Source: Escherichia virus TH57. Taken from it: a stretch of 64,000 bases of DNA. This document shows positions 20,189 to 38,546 of this stretch, piece after piece; within the stretch, counting starts at the first letter, position 1, and the number at the start of each line of letters is the position of its first letter. Position numbers and translations under genes: made by a program. The stretch lies in the sequence record MT446422.1, one strand, 5' to 3'. The notes under the pieces were generated by a model that saw nothing but the letters and a program-made list of their open reading frames with translations, ran no database searches and had not been told where the DNA came from.

Positions 20189-20522
20189 TATCGATTTATC
20201 TGATTTAGATAATTTCGAGAAAGATGCGGAGGGAGCTAAGGCTCCTTCTGTGCCTTACTACGAAAAAAGTTTGGAGATTATCCGGCAATCCATGGGAACC
20301 GTACGACAGGAAATTCTGTTATCACTCCCTGATGGGTCCAATCACATTGTGTACGTAACCGGAATTAAAATTGAACCATCTGGAAAAGTTTCCGTTGATT
20401 TCGGCACCCCTTCTGAAGACCGCAAAGCGGAGCTTGCAGTGCATGTAGAAAAGTGTGTTACAATGCAAATACAAGATGAAATTGATAAGATTAAAATGAA
20501 AAAGAGGTGGTGGAAGTGGTAG
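20178..20522 (+). CDS. 40: gp40-like protein (head vertex assembly chaperone position)
   Basis: 114 aa ORF between uvsX and 41; assignment by position and size. Confidence 0.45.
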   Translation: MMNDIDLSDLDNFEKDAEGAKAPSVPYYEKSLEIIRQSMGTVRQEILLSLPDGSNHIVYVTGIKIEPSGKVSVDFGTPSEDRKAELAVHVEKCVTMQIQDEIDKIKMKKRWWKW

Positions 20523-21946
20523 AAACTATTTTATCCCAGCTACTCTTTAACAAGGAATATTTTGTTAAAGTCTGGCCATATCTTAATAACACATATTTTG
20601 AAAAGGGTCCAGCAAAGACCCTTTTTAATACGATTAACGAACACGTAAAAGAATATCAAGCGGTACCAACTAAGACTGCACTTGATATCGCGCTCGACAG
20701 TTCTGACCTTTCTGAAGTCGAATATGAAGGCACAAAGAAACTCTTAGGAGTCCTGGCCGATACTCCAGAAGACCAGGAATGGTTGGTCAAAGAAACCGAG
20801 AAGTATGTACAGAAGTCTGCGATGTTCAATGCCACATCCAGGATTATCGAAATCCAGAGTAATGCCGAACTTCCAAAAGATAAACGTGATAAACGAATCC
20901 CAGATATTGGGGCTATCCCTGACATCATGCGCGATGCATTGTCCATCTGTTTTGACTCTGCTCTGGGGCATGACTGGTTAAACGATTACGAAGCTCGATT
21001 CCAGACTTATCTGAACAAATCGAAGAAGGTTCCGTTCCGTATTAACATCCTGAATAAAATCACGAAGGGTGGAGTTGAGTACGGCACAGAGAACGTTTTA
21101 CTGGCCGGGACAAACGTCGGCAAATCCCTTGGACTTTGTTCGTTAGCGGCTGACTATCTTCAGACTGGTCATAACGTGCTTTATATAAGCATGGAAATGG
21201 CTGAAGAAGTATGTGCCAAACGTATTGATGCCAACTTGTTGGATGTATCTCTGGATGATATTGATGAAGGTCATGTGTCATGGGCAGAATACAAAAGTAA
21301 GATGGAAAAATGGCGTGCTTCCGGGACTCTCGGGACTCTGAAGATAAAACAATATCCAACTGGGGGCGCGCATGCGGATACCTTCCGTGCATTACTGAAC
21401 GAGTACAAACTGAAGCAAGGATTTGTACCGGATGTGATTATTGTTGACTACCTGGCAATCTGCGCAAGCTCAAGACTGAAAACGTTTACCGAAAACAGTT
21501 ACGGCCTGATTAAGATGGTTGCAGAAGAACTTCGTGGTCTGGCGGTCGAGAAAAATGTGGTCCTGTGGACTGCAGCACAGACAACCAGGGGCGCAAACGT
21601 TGCAGCTGAGATTGACATGGCTGACATCGCAGAATCCTTTGGTATTGCTCACACGGCTGACTTTATGTTGGGTGTTGTTGAGACCGAAGAATTCGCTCAA
21701 ATGGGACTGCAGTTAATCAAACAGCTTAAGTCTCGTTATGGCGATAAGAACTACTATAATAAATTCAAGATGGGTGTTAAGAAAGGTAATCAACGCTGGT
21801 ATGAGGTTGATGATGATTCAGCTCCTAAACAAGGCCCTACGGTGAAAGAAGCCACTGGTGAGATGAATCGTCAGGCTGAAATGAATAGACAAACCAGGGT
21901 CAACAGGAGCGACCTGGATGACCTTGCCGCTCAAATGAAATTTTAA
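20507..21946 (+). CDS. 41: replicative DNA helicase gp41 (DnaB-like)
   Basis: 479 aa; Walker A GTNVGKS; hexameric-helicase motifs. Confidence 0.95.
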   Translation: MVEVVETILSQLLFNKEYFVKVWPYLNNTYFEKGPAKTLFNTINEHVKEYQAVPTKTALDIALDSSDLSEVEYEGTKKLLGVLADTPEDQEWLVKETEKYVQKSAMFNATSRIIEIQSNAELPKDKRDKRIPDIGAIPDIMRDALSICFDSALGHDWLNDYEARFQTYLNKSKKVPFRINILNKITKGGVEYGTENVLLAGTNVGKSLGLCSLAADYLQTGHNVLYISMEMAEEVCAKRIDANLLDVSLDDIDEGHVSWAEYKSKMEKWRASGTLGTLKIKQYPTGGAHADTFRALLNEYKLKQGFVPDVIIVDYLAICASSRLKTFTENSYGLIKMVAEELRGLAVEKNVVLWTAAQTTRGANVAAEIDMADIAESFGIAHTADFMLGVVETEEFAQMGLQLIKQLKSRYGDKNYYNKFKMGVKKGNQRWYEVDDDSAPKQGPTVKEATGEMNRQAEMNRQTRVNRSDLDDLAAQMKF

Positions 21947-23243: not shown

Positions 23244-23681
23244 ATGATTAACAGAAATTTGGTTATCAAAAAACTTCGCTGTAAAAATCCAAATGCGCAA
23301 GCATACAGAGTGTTTTGGAGCGACGAGATTCAATATCTGGGTTATTTTCTTGTTGACAGTGATAATAGAATTACGTTTGCTCATAAGCTTCTTAACAAAG
23401 AATTAAACCATTGGCAAGAACTTATTGCAGTCAAGTCTAAATTATTTTCATGCAATGCAATGCACCAATTGGTTTATTTTTTCGCTGATGGTATTCCTGA
23501 CAAGGTTGAGTTTGAAGGGTTTGAATTTAAAGACATCAATCCAGACAATGAATTGAATAATGATGTTGTTAATATGGGTATCCCTGGTAAGTACATCAAA
23601 AACAGTCTTTTGAAAATTCTGGAAAATCCTGTTTATTCAGTTGACGACCAAATTTTTAATGCCTTTATGAAGCGAGATTAA
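23244..23681 (+). CDS. hypothetical protein (145 aa)
   Basis: Start at ATG 23244 just after upstream stop; C-terminus DDQIFNAFMKRD shared with next ORF. Confidence 0.45.
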   Translation: MINRNLVIKKLRCKNPNAQAYRVFWSDEIQYLGYFLVDSDNRITFAHKLLNKELNHWQELIAVKSKLFSCNAMHQLVYFFADGIPDKVEFEGFEFKDINPDNELNNDVVNMGIPGKYIKNSLLKILENPVYSVDDQIFNAFMKRD

Positions 23682-23685
23682 TATG
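23643..23685 (+). repeat. 43-nt gene-end/gene-start junction repeat (second copy at 24001-24043)
   Basis: 39 of 43 nt identical; both encode DDQIFNAFMKR(D/G), stop, TAATATG start. Confidence 0.7.
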
Positions 23686-24039
23686 AGTTATTATAATTTT
23701 CTGAATTTTGAACTGGCCAGCAATAATGATGGTAATGCTCGTTATGAATTTCGTGAGCCTCGGTTTAATCAGGCGATTGGTTATATTATCGTTAAAGATG
23801 ATGTTATCATAAAGGCTCGCTCATTTATGGTAATGGATGGACCTTATGAAGATACTCGTGGATACCCATTTGATAAAAAGAATGTGCGCGATTGCGCAAT
23901 CTGGATAACTGGGAACCCTGAAATTGGGGTCATGATATCTACTGAAGCGAATGACATTCTGGAAGGGGTAGCCAAAGCTCAAGAACCGCCTACTGATATT
24001 GATGACCAGATTTTTAATGCCTTCATGAAGCGAGGTTAA
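23683..24039 (+). CDS. hypothetical protein (118 aa)
   Basis: C-terminus DDQIFNAFMKRG; 3' 43 nt nearly identical to the end of the preceding gene. Confidence 0.45.
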   Translation: MSYYNFLNFELASNNDGNARYEFREPRFNQAIGYIIVKDDVIIKARSFMVMDGPYEDTRGYPFDKKNVRDCAIWITGNPEIGVMISTEANDILEGVAKAQEPPTDIDDQIFNAFMKRG

Positions 24040-24040
24040 T

Positions 24041-24262
24041 ATGTTTGTTTTGACCCAATTCTCTAAAGCAATATATAGTTACTCTTGCCAGTGGGAAGTC
24101 TTTATTGATACTCCTTCGCCTAAGTATGGTGTTTTTGGACGAGTAACTACTCAAGCTTATGTTGCACGACCGACTAAACGTCAGATTCGTAAACTTAAAA
24201 AGGCACATCGTCAATTGATTAAAAGAAGGGAACAATATGAGTGCAATGTGTACGGGCTCTAA
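24041..24262 (+). CDS. small basic protein (73 aa), paralog of ORF 433-609
   Basis: Motif ARPTKRQIRKLKKAHRQ shared with ORF 433-609. Confidence 0.4.
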   Translation: MFVLTQFSKAIYSYSCQWEVFIDTPSPKYGVFGRVTTQAYVARPTKRQIRKLKKAHRQLIKRREQYECNVYGL

Positions 24263-24428
24263 GATTTCGGTCTTCCAGATTTTTGAAGAATATGAAATCG
24301 TGTCGCAAGACCAAGAAGCAATCCATGTTATCGCTGATGATGGTGTTACCTGGATTATTCCGTTGTATCATGAAGACACTTATGAAGTGACTGATGCAAA
24401 TGGTGATAAAGCTATCTTCGTTGTATAA
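24237..24428 (+). CDS. hypothetical protein (63 aa)
   Basis: ORF overlapping the preceding gene by 26 nt. Confidence 0.3.
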   Translation: MSAMCTGSKISVFQIFEEYEIVSQDQEAIHVIADDGVTWIIPLYHEDTYEVTDANGDKAIFVV

Positions 24429-24431
24429 ATA
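24424..24431 (+). promoter_or_regulatory. late promoter TATAAATA
   Basis: Exact TATAAATA 17 nt upstream of ATG 24448. Confidence 0.55.
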
Positions 24432-24447
24432 GCGGAAAGGGGGTGTT

Positions 24448-24615
24448 ATGAAAACATTCAAAGATTTTATAAACGAAGATATGGTTGCCGGTGATGCAGG
24501 TGGAAACCCAACTAATATCGCAACAGGTACCACTTCCGGGGCAGTTGTCAATAAAGGCCCTGAACAAATCCCATCAAAAAAGCGTAAGAACAAAGACGAT
24601 AAACCTACAGTATAA
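24448..24615 (+). CDS. candidate capsid-targeted internal protein (55 aa precursor)
   Basis: N-terminus MKTFKDFINE resembles the recalled T4 internal-protein capsid targeting sequence MKTYQEFIAE, with an I-x-E cleavage context; TATAAATA 17 nt upstream; AAAGGGGG RBS. Confidence 0.5.
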   Translation: MKTFKDFINEDMVAGDAGGNPTNIATGTTSGAVVNKGPEQIPSKKRKNKDDKPTV

Positions 24616-24632
24616 TGGTCCCCCGGGACCAT
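24615..24632 (+). promoter_or_regulatory. palindromic hairpin upstream of gene 61 RBS
   Basis: ATGGTCCC cc GGGACCAT perfect palindrome. Confidence 0.35.
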
Positions 24633-24647
24633 TGAAATGAGGAAACT

Positions 24648-25676
24648 ATGTCATATATTGATAAAGAATTTGCGGTCAGAGCTTTATCGTATCAACCACG
24701 TTATAGAGAAGTCACCGGGAGCACATTTAAAGCAAACTGTCGTTGTAAGGTTTGCGGGGACTCCCAGAAAGATTCACATAAGGCTCGATTCTGGGCGTAT
24801 ACCAATCCGTCTGATGGTGCGGTTTACGTGAAATGTTTTAACTGTGACTACTCCACGCATATAAGCAAATACATAAAAGAGTTTGAGCCGGATTTGCACC
24901 GGGAATATATGGTTGAGAAGTACAAGGAAAATGCCTTCGGTCGACAACGTAATGAAGTTGCAGAAACTCCGAAAGAACCAGAAAAAACTCCGGTTATTGA
25001 AGAGCTTGCTTTTTGCGAAAGAATCGATACTTTACCAGAAGCACATCCGATAGTTAAGTATGTGAAAAGTCGGTGTATTCCGAGCAATGTTTGGAACCGG
25101 TTATGGTTTACAAACAAATGGCCTGCATTAGTTAACTCCGTTAATCCTGGGACGTATAAGAATGAAACGAATGAACCACGCTTGGTTATTCCTATCTTCA
25201 ACGGCAAAAAAGAAATCGAATCTTTCCAAGGACGAGCTCTTCGCAAAGATGCACCACAAAAATATATCACAATCAAAGCTCACCCAGAAGCTTCCAAAGT
25301 CTATGGCGTAGACAAGATTGATGAGCGCAAGCGCGTGTGGGTAATGGAAGGTCCGATTGATAGTTTGTTTATCCCTAACAGCATTGCGATAACCGGTGGA
25401 ACATTAGCATTGGAAGCCGTTCCTTATGCTGAAACCCGAGTATGGGTAATGGACAACGAGCCAAGACATCCGGATACGATTAAACGTATGAAGAAACTCG
25501 TTGAAGCTGGCGAAGCTGTTATGTTCTGGGACAATGCACCATGGCATACGAAAGACATAAATGAGATGGTTAAATCGGAGGGTGCAACCCCTGAACAAAT
25601 CGAATCATATATGGCCGATAACGTTGCTCAAGGGCTGATGGCGAGAATGCGACTTTCGAAGTACGCAAAAGTTTAG
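24648..25676 (+). CDS. 61: DNA primase gp61
   Basis: 342 aa; N-terminal zinc ribbon (CRCKVCGDS ... CFNC); canonical position after 41. Confidence 0.92.
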   Translation: MSYIDKEFAVRALSYQPRYREVTGSTFKANCRCKVCGDSQKDSHKARFWAYTNPSDGAVYVKCFNCDYSTHISKYIKEFEPDLHREYMVEKYKENAFGRQRNEVAETPKEPEKTPVIEELAFCERIDTLPEAHPIVKYVKSRCIPSNVWNRLWFTNKWPALVNSVNPGTYKNETNEPRLVIPIFNGKKEIESFQGRALRKDAPQKYITIKAHPEASKVYGVDKIDERKRVWVMEGPIDSLFIPNSIAITGGTLALEAVPYAETRVWVMDNEPRHPDTIKRMKKLVEAGEAVMFWDNAPWHTKDINEMVKSEGATPEQIESYMADNVAQGLMARMRLSKYAKV

Positions 25677-26868: not shown

Positions 26869-26876
26869 TATAAATA
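26869..26876 (+). promoter_or_regulatory. late promoter TATAAATA for soc
   Basis: Exact TATAAATA about 32 nt upstream of soc ATG. Confidence 0.6.
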
Positions 26877-26907: not shown

Positions 26908-27141
26908 ATGGGTGGTTTCGTTAATATCAAAACCTTCACGCATGCAGCTGGTGAAGGTAAAGAAGTTAAAGGTACTGAGGTTTCAGTTCCATTTGAAATC
27001 TATTCTGATGCGCATCGTATTGCTAATGCTCATTATCAGACTTTCCCTTCGGCCGTTGCAGCCTATTCTACCGTAGTGACTGATGCTGCTGACTGGAAGA
27101 CCAAGAACGAGGCAATGTTTACGCCGACCGATATTGTTTAA
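26908..27141 (+). CDS. soc: small outer capsid protein Soc
   Basis: 77 aa; motifs FVNIKTF and AHYQTFPS..AAYSTV as recalled for T4 Soc; late promoter TATAAATA upstream. Confidence 0.8.
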   Translation: MGGFVNIKTFTHAAGEGKEVKGTEVSVPFEIYSDAHRIANAHYQTFPSAVAAYSTVVTDAADWKTKNEAMFTPTDIV

Positions 27142-36520: not shown

Positions 36521-38353
36521 ATGATGATTAATAATGAAATTAAAGTACTCTCGGACGTCGAGCATATCAAAAAACGTTCCGGGATGTATATTGGTTCCAG
36601 TTCAAATGAAGCGCATGAGCGATTCTTGTTTGGTGAATATAAGTCCGTAAGCTATGTTCCTGGTATTGTAAAACTGATTGATGAAATTATTGATAACTCT
36701 GTTGATGAAGCAATTCGCACCAGTTTTAAATTTGCCAATAAAATTGATGTCCAAATTAAAGATAATCAGATTTCGGTTTCTGATAATGGCCGTGGTATTC
36801 CACAGGCAATGGTTACAGACCAAAACGGTGAACAAATCCCTGGCCCTGTTGCAGCATGGACTATTCCAAAAGCAGGTGGCAACTTCGGCGATGATGCTGA
36901 ACGTAAAACTGGCGGGATGAATGGCGTCGGGTCTTCTCTGACCAATATTTTCTCCGTATTGTTCACCGGGATTACCGCTGATGGGGCGAACGAAATTACT
37001 GTTAACTGCTCCAACGGTATGGAAAACAAATGTTGGTCGACTAAGAAATCAAAGGGTAAAGGTACGACTGTTATATTTATTCCAGATTTTAGTCACTTTG
37101 AAGAAAATAGTCTGTCCCAGATTTATCTGGATATTACATTGGACCGTCTGCAGACTCTTGCTGTTGTTTATCCGGATATTCAGTTCACCTTTAATGGTAA
37201 AAAGGTTGATGGCAACTTCAAGAAGTTCTCCAAGCAATTCGGAACCGAAGTTGTTATTCAGGAAACTGATACAGTATCGATGGCCTTTACGACCAGCCCA
37301 GACGGTTTCCGTCAGTTGACTTATGTCAACAACATTCATACAAAGAATGGCGGACACCACGTTGAATGTGTTATGGATGATATCTGTGAACACCTTCAGC
37401 CGGCGATTAAGCGCAAATATAAAGGCATTGAGGTGACCAAGGCACGAGTTAAAGAATGTCTCACCATGCTTATGTTCATCCGCGATATGAGCAACATGCG
37501 ATTTGATTCCCAAACCAAGGAGCGATTGACTTCTCCGGCTGGTGAAATCCGAAATCACATTAAGATTGATGCTAAGAAAATCGCGCAAGCTATTCTGAAA
37601 AATGAACCGCTGATTATGCCGATTGTTGAAGCTGCATTAGCCCGTAAATTGGCTGCAGAGAAAGCAGCAGAGACTAAGGCAAATAAGAAAGCTTCAAAGG
37701 CCAAGGTACAAAAGCATATCAAGGCCAACGAATGGGGCAATGATAAGTTGGAAACGACTCTATTCCTGACCGAAGGGGATTCTGCAACTGGCCCATTTAT
37801 CAAGGTTCGCGACCGTGAATTGCAGGGTGCTTATCCATTACGGGGCAAGTTTAAAAACACATGGGGCCTGAAAGCTATTGACGTTATGAAGAACGCTGAA
37901 GCCTTTGATGTGTGTGCAATTACTGGATTAACGATTGGACAACCGGCCGAGAATATGAATTACCGAAACATTGCTATCATGACAGATGCGGATGTGGATG
38001 GTGTCGGTAGTATCTATCCATCGTTATTGGCGTTTTTCAGTAACTGGCCAGAGCTGTTCCATGAAGGACGAATTCGCTTTGTGAAAACTCCTGTTATTAT
38101 TGCGCAGCTCAAAGATAAACAAGAATGGTTCTATTCTCTTCCTGACTATGAAGAAGCTAAGGATAAACTTCCGAAGCACACCATCCGATACATCAAGGGA
38201 CTTGGTTCTCTGGAAGATGCCGAGTACAAACGCGTATTGCTCGAACCGGTATTCGAAGTTGTTCAATTGCCTGACAACTGGAAAGAACTGTTTGAAATGT
38301 TATTCGGTAAAGATTCCCAGCAGCGCAAAGATTGGATGAATGCGACGCTATAA
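36521..38353 (+). CDS. 39: DNA topoisomerase II large subunit (GyrB-like ATPase; genes 39 and 60 as one ORF)
   Basis: 610 aa continuous ORF; GHKL ATPase N-terminus and TOPRIM region; no internal stop or bypass. Confidence 0.9.
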   Translation: MMINNEIKVLSDVEHIKKRSGMYIGSSSNEAHERFLFGEYKSVSYVPGIVKLIDEIIDNSVDEAIRTSFKFANKIDVQIKDNQISVSDNGRGIPQAMVTDQNGEQIPGPVAAWTIPKAGGNFGDDAERKTGGMNGVGSSLTNIFSVLFTGITADGANEITVNCSNGMENKCWSTKKSKGKGTTVIFIPDFSHFEENSLSQIYLDITLDRLQTLAVVYPDIQFTFNGKKVDGNFKKFSKQFGTEVVIQETDTVSMAFTTSPDGFRQLTYVNNIHTKNGGHHVECVMDDICEHLQPAIKRKYKGIEVTKARVKECLTMLMFIRDMSNMRFDSQTKERLTSPAGEIRNHIKIDAKKIAQAILKNEPLIMPIVEAALARKLAAEKAAETKANKKASKAKVQKHIKANEWGNDKLETTLFLTEGDSATGPFIKVRDRELQGAYPLRGKFKNTWGLKAIDVMKNAEAFDVCAITGLTIGQPAENMNYRNIAIMTDADVDGVGSIYPSLLAFFSNWPELFHEGRIRFVKTPVIIAQLKDKQEWFYSLPDYEEAKDKLPKHTIRYIKGLGSLEDAEYKRVLLEPVFEVVQLPDNWKELFEMLFGKDSQQRKDWMNATL

Positions 38354-38356
38354 ATA
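38349..38356 (+). promoter_or_regulatory. late-promoter-like TATAAATA overlapping gene 39 stop
   Basis: Exact TATAAATA; 38 nt upstream of ORF 38394. Confidence 0.35.
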
Positions 38357-38393
38357 GATGTGGGAGAATATTCTCCCGCTACTAGGAGACAAT

Positions 38394-38546
38394 ATGACTA
38401 AATACTGGATTACACTCGCTACCGGTGAATATGGTTTTCTCTGGGCAGAGAAAAAGCCTTTGTTTGCAGAATTTGTAACAATCACGTGCGAAACCTGGGA
38501 AGGTGAAACTTTCATGGCGTATGGTCAAGTCTATAAAGTAGAATAA
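38394..38546 (+). CDS. hypothetical protein (50 aa)
   Basis: ATG with AGGAGA RBS; TATAAATA overlaps gene 39 stop 38 nt upstream. Confidence 0.35.
   Translation: MTKYWITLATGEYGFLWAEKKPLFAEFVTITCETWEGETFMAYGQVYKVE

Follow-up and report, generated by a model that had tools for sequence, protein, structure and literature searches.

What is the small gene that lies, behind a late promoter motif, among the early genes of Escherichia virus TH57? The window examined here is a 64,000-nucleotide stretch of this phage (MT446422.1), 95-98% identical to the Gaprivervirus phages TH54, VR7 and SP18. The open reading frame (ORF) in question, at 24448-24615, is by identity and position T4 gene 61.1 in its Gaprivervirus version; the gene is real and translated, and has been catalogued but not studied. 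Its product shows 100% identity to VR7 gp61.1 and, over residues 1-42, about 86% identity to T4 gp61.1 (54 amino acids, "hypothetical protein"; both tblastn). As read from alignments, it is a stand-alone copy of the cleavage junction and N-fist of the capsid protein gp23, followed by a basic tail. We tentatively postulate a basic, N-fist-like peptide that is targeted to the prohead and processed by the protease gp21. The predicted product consists of three parts, namely a 10-residue leader, the gp21 motif I-N-E|D, and an N-fist copy of ~45 residues with its Lys/Arg tail:

24448-24615, + strand: coding sequence of the 61.1 homolog, 55 amino acids, stop codon at 24613-24615, product MKTFKDFINEDMVAGDAGGNPTNIATGTTSGAVVNKGPEQIPSKKRKNKDDKPTV
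24448-24477, + strand: leader decapeptide MKTFKDFINE, resembling a capsid targeting sequence (CTS) and ending in the putative gp21 site I-N-E|D
24478-24561, + strand: conserved core DMVAGDAGGNPTNIATGTTSGAVVNKGP, residues 11-38, homologous to gp23 66-93 (N-fist and start of the N-arm)
24577-24603, + strand: basic tail KKRKNKDDK, residues 44-52, read from the sequence

An earlier sequence-only reading of the window had given the same coordinates and sequence for this ORF, and we confirm them; the product carries I8-N9-E10 and the KKRKNKDDK tail.

The gp23-like core, its cleavage motif and the leader

Residues 2-46 of 61.1 align without gaps to residues 57-101 of T4 gp23 (44% identity over 45 residues, BLASTP E 2e-10), and in a phmmer search of the entire PDB, gp23 58-94 comes out first. 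A profile comparison of 34 long-form relatives with gp23 N-termini (hhalign) returns a probability of 95% and an E-value of 3.6e-8, with the similarity confined to gp23 55-98. Mature gp23 chains in the PDB begin at A66, and gp21 is known to remove the 65 N-terminal residues of gp23 (PMC9546572). The leader aligns to gp23 56-65, AQAFGSFLTE|A; given this alignment and the known cut, E10|D11 of 61.1 falls on the gp23 maturation site E65|A66. The cleavage-site residues are thus in register, whereas the rest of gp23 is missing from 61.1, which ends in a basic tail instead; the Pfam family of the HK97-fold body (PF07068) is not matched by 61.1, even when E-values of up to 10 are allowed. In nearly all relatives the core is succeeded by a stretch rich in Lys and Arg.

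The N-fist comprises the first 25 residues of mature gp23 (PMC9958956). In the unexpanded head, gp23 66-105 lies inside, probably touching the core, with the N-fist disordered (PMC9546572). After expansion, the N-fist has moved outward and contacts four subunits, and together with the I-domain linkers it forms the Soc site (PMC9546572, PMC9958956).

The putative cleavage motif is close to invariant. [LIMV]-x-E stands ahead of the core in 131/132 relatives: among the 132 core-bearing members, P1 is Glu in every one, P3 is Leu (104), Ile (15), Met (9), Val (3) or Cys (1), and P2 is free. Verified gp21 sites have the same form, namely L-T-E|A in gp23, L-R-E|S in gp24 and I-A-E|A in the internal proteins (cf. 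PMC9546572). The sequence-only reading had likened I-x-E to the prohead protease site, and the likeness is borne out, as the motif lies residue for residue on the gp21 site of gp23. We saw no sign of concerted evolution or gene conversion between the two genes: 61.1 shares 18/40 residues with VR7 gp23, no more than with T4 gp23, its identity to both staying at ~45%, and the gp23 N-fist itself is nearly identical between T4 and VR7.

Two further observations concern the head proteins themselves. A distant gp23 N-terminal fragment (P0301, alignment A3) lacks the GGDHGYNATNIA part of the N-fist, with a 12-residue gap after FLTEAA, which raises the question of whether the presence of the gp23 N-fist tracks the N-fist-like core in the 61.1 family. 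VR7 (L074, 5503-8067) carries two tandem paralogues of gene 24, the vertex protein, with the leaders MAKINELLRE and MQKINALIHE.

The leader was compared with the capsid targeting sequences of internal proteins, in which positions 4 and 7 are key for targeting and positions 8 and 10 for processing (Mullaney and Black 1996, per PMC9026906). MKTFKDFINE carries an aromatic residue at 4, F at 7, I at 8 and E at 10. Among internal proteins, T4 IPII and IPIII start with MKTYQEFIAE (translated), VR7 Ip6 and ORF153c with MKTYQEFINE, VR7 Ip9 with MKTFNELFNE, and those of RB69 with MKTYKEFIAE, MKMYQEFIIE and MKTYAEFLTE. On a position-specific scoring matrix built from 8 internal-protein leader decapeptides (T4, VR7, RB69), MKTFKDFINE scores 19.6 bits, the highest of the 961 ATG starts in the window; the runner-up reaches 4.0 (mean -14.5, standard deviation 5.1). 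This profile check upholds the resemblance of the N-terminus to a CTS, which the sequence-only reading had put forward. T4-type 61.1 leaders score 21.7-24.9 bits. In a distant T4-like contig (L072), the ORF directly after a 470-residue family member (9495-9608) starts with the CTS-like MKSFKQFVNE, at 8.7 bits.

The last ten residues of the gp23 propeptide (T4 gene 23, L003, codons 56-65), AQAFGSFLTE, stand in the CTS register too. Common to the CTS, the propeptide end and the 61.1 leader are an aromatic residue at -7, Phe at -4, Ile/Leu at -3 and Glu at -1, a pattern which suggests that the CTS mimics the end of the gp23 propeptide. The internal-protein CTS, the gp23 propeptide end and 61.1, so far regarded as separate matters, are now linked. 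The shared register bears on how T4 recognises head cargo, and matters for CTS-based T4 vectors for protein and DNA delivery.

Gene 61.1 resembles the T-even internal proteins IPI/IPII/IPIII and Ip6/Ip9, which are processed by gp21, injected and dispensable: both have a leader of the form MKT[YF]x[ED]F[IL]xE, a late promoter just 5', and a small, basic and dispensable product. It is unlike them in lying at 41-61 instead of the hyperplastic ip loci, in having a mature part that is conserved and gp23-homologous, and in that its encapsidation is a prediction. Internal proteins are hypervariable outside the CTS, their only conserved part (PMC3012670).

Conservation at the protein level is strong. 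The 61.1 core is highly conserved in phages of Escherichia, Klebsiella, Acinetobacter, Serratia, Yersinia, Cronobacter and others. A tblastn search with 61.1 finds two matching places per genome, and more than 1,500 phage records match, a count that includes matches to gp23 itself. Over the 30 codons of the core, the ratio of nonsynonymous to synonymous differences (pN/pS) is 0.04-0.4, with pN 0.03-0.25 and pS 0.5-0.9; because pN is low and synonymous sites are near saturation, we take the + frame to be translated and constrained. We dismissed as an artefact the minus-strand ORF 24219-24632 that overlaps the gene, since substitutions follow the + frame. The protein matches two PHROGs of unknown function, phrog_1823 (the short form; E 1e-32, residues 1-52) and the C-terminal third of phrog_2086 (the long form; E 1.4e-16). 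T4 61.1 (PHROG 1823/2086) is an orthologue at the same position, although the T4 copy is without late promoter and hairpin. Pfam and NCBIfam scans with both short and long forms matched no family, and we found no functional statement on gp61.1 or any family member in the literature searched. Many GenBank records name the ORF "major capsid (domain-containing) protein"; such names reflect the gp23-like segment only.

Late promoter and downstream hairpin

The features flanking the coding sequence are as follows:

24424-24431, + strand: T4-type late promoter motif TATAAATA, an exact match at -24, overlapping the TAA stop of the upstream ORF 24237-24428
24434-24445, + strand: purine-rich Shine-Dalgarno region GGAAAGGGGGTG, ending 2 nucleotides 5' of the ATG at 24448, read from the sequence
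24613-24634, + strand: 9-bp GC-rich hairpin from the fold results, directly 3' of the 61.1 stop, preceded by TATAAT (24611-24616) and without a T-run
24648-25676, + strand: primase gene 61, the invariant downstream neighbour of 61.1

Both the exact late promoter motif and the strong ribosome-binding site (RBS) claimed earlier are present at these positions. The window holds 7 copies of TATAAATA against 5.1 expected, so that a single copy alone is not significant. Three of the 4 copies on the + strand, however, sit 16-45 nucleotides 5' of an RBS and ATG. Nine of 15 relatives carry NATAAATA in the interval 15-50 nucleotides 5' of the 61.1 start, at 20-35 nucleotides (binomial P ~2e-16, at a background of 1.9e-4 per nucleotide, for upstream contexts that are less than 70% identical over 60 nucleotides and not fully independent phylogenetically). 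The coding strand of the 5-kb locus usually has no other motif of this type; the distant contig L071 has a single copy, 42 nucleotides 5' of its 61.1 homolog. Given the + strand placement, the conservation in 9/15 relatives and the CTS-profile leader, we consider the TATAAATA copy at 61.1 more than chance, and by these counts the late promoter is a conserved feature of the gene in several lineages. VR7 ip9 has the same late promoter arrangement as 61.1.

A hairpin occurs at the same place in 12/14 lineages. Its stem sequences differ between lineages in a compensatory pattern, and a T-run is present in L041, L055 and L061. Just before this hairpin, and running into it, TATAATGG is conserved (window 24611-24634; L031, L041, L045, L047-L049, L052, L055, L061, L065). 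It may serve gene 61 as a -10 element of the sigma-70 type, in which case the transcript would start inside the hairpin, or it may belong to a structure that terminates or stabilises the 61.1 mRNA.

The closest regulatory parallel is soc, likewise a small head-related gene among early genes with its own TATAAATA, although unrelated in sequence. Soc attaches to the outer surface of expanded capsids and undergoes no processing. In T4 e and soc, the RBS is hidden by a hairpin in early read-through transcripts and free in late ones; no convincing RBS-sequestering structure was found for early read-through transcripts of 61.1.

Two more copies of TATAAATA in the window precede small ORFs. One, at 26869, is followed by an RBS and a 77-residue ORF (26908-27141, + strand) that matches phrog_1715, "virion structural protein", and is soc-like; by these marks the early region contains a second head gene under a late promoter. 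The other (window 38349-38546, + strand) overlaps the end of the ORF of topoisomerase gene 39 (36521-38353) and is followed by a 50-residue ORF (38394-38546; phrog_4369, unknown function). The protein of T4 39.1, the ORF next to gene 39, is classed as late (PMC9697503, Table S2).

Long and short forms of the family

The short form, of 53-56 residues, occurs in Tequatrovirus, Mosigvirus, Gaprivervirus and a few other T-even-like lineages, and reaches 57-60 residues in contigs of low-GC gut phages. Most other T4-like phages carry a long form of 154-160 residues with the core and tail at its C-terminus, as in Karamvirus CC31, phages of Klebsiella, Acinetobacter, Yersinia and Serratia, and KVP40. 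The long form begins with a conserved helical N-terminal domain (N-domain) of ~105 residues, after which ...FKELPLFE|DMVAGD stands ahead of the core. When short and long forms are aligned at the DNA level, the upstream ORF, the RBS and the start are the same, and the leader codons fall on the KEIFKEL codons of the long form. Because the start is kept and the leader matches KEIFKEL, the short form can be read as a derivative of the long form: on this alignment, the T-even version arose by internal deletion of the N-domain. No separate N-domain gene was found elsewhere in the window.

Used alone as a query, the N-domain is much more widespread than the N-fist-like core, with 1857 representative proteins at E up to 1e-3. 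It is found in Pelagibacter phage HTVC008M, Sinorhizobium phage phiM12, Aeh1 and RB16 with varied C-terminal parts. AlphaFold2 models the long form with a helical N-domain of moderate confidence (predicted local distance difference test, pLDDT, 77-87 over residues 10-70) and a disordered core (pLDDT <50). A core predicted to be disordered alone is consistent with a segment that becomes ordered only on a partner. A Foldseek search of the PDB with the long form gave nothing (best E 3.5), and a search of BFVD returned uncharacterised family members only, so that no fold-based annotation of the N-domain was obtained.

Head and ejection proteins of the giant phages SPN3US and phiKZ have long N-terminal propeptides that are removed after Glu, of 124-127 residues and cut at A-x-E in SPN3US, and T4 uses CTSs of 10-20 residues where giant phages have propeptides of more than 100 (PMC5694885). 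With this precedent, the N-domain can be read as a long propeptide. The long form is alike in having ~105 residues and then L-x-E, with its processing predicted only, and it shares no sequence or fold similarity with the giant-phage propeptides.

The gene keeps its surroundings. Helicase gene 41 (20507-21946), 61.1 and primase gene 61 lie in this order in the window, and the mapped coordinates agree with the earlier placement between 41 and 61. The order 41-61.1-61 is common to T4, VR7 and the IMG/VR loci examined, with 61.1 directly 5' of the primase. In the metagenomic contigs examined, the N-domain gene lies in the block of replication and nucleotide-metabolism genes, either 3' of uvsX and helicase 41 or beside RNR/RNaseH genes; in phiM12 it lies two genes upstream of the primase.

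Individual genomes show some variants of this pattern. In HTVC008M (L076, 3489-5544) the family seems split: AGE60475, the N-domain, is followed by one small basic ORF and then by AGE60477, which starts with MKTFTDF... and holds EDIANVAGDG, a KKKK run and an FxxGxxKFEKWSKYLNLED domain. The split parts are fused into one protein in the metagenomic relatives P0183, P0197 and P0205. The short-form homologs of gut-metagenome contigs L059-L064 (IMG/VR, GC 30%, ~2498-2680) contain in-frame TAG codons, and L060 has TAG where its sister contig L059 has CAA (Gln). In the same contigs helicase 41 has 3-4 in-frame TAGs and the primase has none, a distribution that suggests TAG-to-Gln recoding in these T4-like gut phages. 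As helicase 41 contains them too, recoded TAG codons are not diagnostic as a late-gene marker for 61.1.

Fate of the peptide and competing explanations

For a prohead-targeted, gp21-processed peptide we envisage the following course. Late in infection, the 61.1 protein would attach to the scaffolding core, or to the prohead from within, through the same contacts as the gp23 N-terminal region. gp21 would then cut after Glu10, and the N-fist-like basic peptide would remain inside the head, either alongside the DNA or at the shell. By analogy with the giant phages, the ~105-residue helical N-domain of the long form would act as a long propeptide in place of the leader. We infer prohead entry and gp21 cutting from late autonomous expression, the leader in CTS register or the long N-domain in its place, the invariant motif, the disordered core, the basic tail and dispensability; retention in the virion and a role for the peptide there would follow. 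Conservation across host genera and the capsid ancestry of the core point to a phage-encoded partner. The T4 gene is indeed dispensable in two genome-wide screens, being scored "Not Fit" in CRISPRi-ART knock-down (supplement of PMC11879866) and "Non-essential" in transposon sequencing, with 13/13 TA sites hit (supplement of bioRxiv 10.1101/2025.11.20.689424).

Several findings weigh against this course of events. The whole stretch between genes 41 and 56 lacks NATAAATA in T4 and its close relatives. In these phages the 61.1 ATG follows the 61.2 stop by 1 nucleotide, with no hairpin; in T4 the gene is expressed from early transcripts and is coupled to 61.2. A T4 time-course likewise found the 61.1 transcript early and the protein not detected, and the same table classes the ipII, ipIII and e transcripts as early too (PMC9697503, Table S2). 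Published T4 capsid maps assign no density to 61.1, and their one unassigned helical density, under gp24*, is attributed by the authors to other peptides (PMC9546572). No virion-proteome entry for 61.1 was found in the literature searched. At the putative cleavage site, P1' is Asp or Glu in most 61.1 members, as against Ala or Ser at verified T4 sites. Finally, the N-domain family always lies within the uvsX-41-...-61 replication block, even in distant phages, which leaves room for a replication-linked role.

Loss of the late promoter and hairpin in T4, an exception within the family, explains why the gene was overlooked. We did not find in the literature searched the homology to the gp23 junction and N-fist, the protease motif, or the late promoter and hairpin that are absent in T4. 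The same holds for the relation of long and short forms and for the register shared by the CTS, the gp23 propeptide end and the 61.1 leader. An uncharacterised gene conserved across the T4 superfamily now has a concrete, cheaply testable hypothesis. The diagnostic peptide for processing of 61.1 would be DMVAGDAGGNPTNIATGTTSGAVVNK, with a non-tryptic N-terminus, starting at D11.

A bolder extension of prohead targeting, which we regard as unlikely, is that 61.1 supplies an N-fist in trans: loaded by its propeptide, be it the long N-domain or the 10-residue CTS, and released by the head protease, the copy would then be a separate structural or regulatory element of the shell. Such a peptide might fill pockets without a cis donor near gp24 pentamers or the portal, or time expansion. 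If true, this would add to the tailed phages a class of capsid component without a described precedent, and it would imply that the internal-protein CTS mimics the gp23 propeptide end.

The partner could also be met outside the head, an account that is possible but doubtful. The protein would then be a soluble assembly modulator, an N-fist mimic that is not packaged and acts in the cytoplasm or on the outside of the capsid, competing with or replacing the gp23 N-terminal region. It might damp premature gp23-gp23 or gp23-core association, serve as decoy substrate or regulator of gp21, bind Soc, or fill N-fist pockets by gp24 pentamers or the portal. The confinement of the homology to the N-fist and cleavage junction fits such a mimic, as do late expression and a conservation strong enough to imply a phage-encoded partner. 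The N-fist contacts four subunits and is part of the Soc site (PMC9958956), and the gp23 length mutants A66D, A94V and G97S map to the N-fist-homologous segment (PMC9546572). A soluble modulator, however, leaves unexplained why the short-form leader stands in exact CTS register and why [LIMV]-x-E is invariant, and it sits poorly with the T4 knock-down and transposon mutants, which show no fitness defect, and with the wide spread of 61.1 homologs.

Prohead targeting would also be the first step of the role that the sequence-only reading had proposed, that of an injected anti-defence effector: like IPI, the mature peptide would enter the cell along with the DNA and block a host immunity system there. 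The late promoter, the CTS-like leader and the I-x-E site on which that proposal was built have stood; the effector role is not supported, and the identity with T4 61.1 and the likeness to gp23 had been missed. The leader and promoter would suit an effector, as would dispensability on laboratory hosts. In T4, 61.1 adjoins dmd, tifA (61.4) and adfA (61.2), a region that has been named an anti-toxin island, with its remaining genes regarded as candidate anti-toxins (bioRxiv 10.1101/2022.04.14.488369). The mature part of 61.1, however, is conserved over many host genera under strong purifying selection, the opposite of the hypervariable internal-protein loci (PMC3012670), and is a paralogue of a capsid structural element. 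Moreover, in the available part of the HIDEN-SEQ T4 study, whose library was challenged with several defence systems, 61.1 is absent from the main text, and one conditional comparison in the supplement gives it a log2 fold change of 1.23 (p 0.22), no significant change. We therefore judge an effector to be decidedly unlikely.

Quite improbable as well is a replication-linked factor, which would assist the primase or helicase or bind DNA; the likeness to gp23 would then be an old domain capture without a function in the head. It would account for the invariant spot 3' of the helicase and directly 5' of the primase, from T-evens to phiM12 and the low-GC gut phages (in HTVC008M the family is present and its neighbours are unannotated). 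The basic tail, the early transcripts in T4 and the N-domain, far commoner than the N-fist-like core (1857 representative proteins), also suit it. A late promoter and a hairpin or terminator of its own, as found in most lineages, would however be unusual for a replication gene, and the conserved protease motif would have no role. The T-evens, moreover, dropped the whole N-domain and kept the cleavage site, the N-fist-like core and the tail.

That the ORF is a chance reading frame or a decaying, functionless fragment of gene 23 is hardly credible: small size, the lack of a Pfam or NCBIfam family and the undetected T4 protein would fit, but pN/pS of 0.04-0.4 with saturated synonymous sites, more than 1,500 matching phage records (gp23 matches included) and conserved RBS, promoter and synteny already contradict it.

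One of the T4 island genes, adfA, may have counterparts in the window. Two adjacent ORFs on the + strand, 23247-23681 (phrog_8539) and 23683-24039 (phrog_4122), both end in DDQIFNAFMKR[D/G], and T4 gp61.2 (AdfA, anti-DarT) ends in IDDQIFNAFMNRG. The pair looks like tandem AdfA-related genes just 5' of 61.1.

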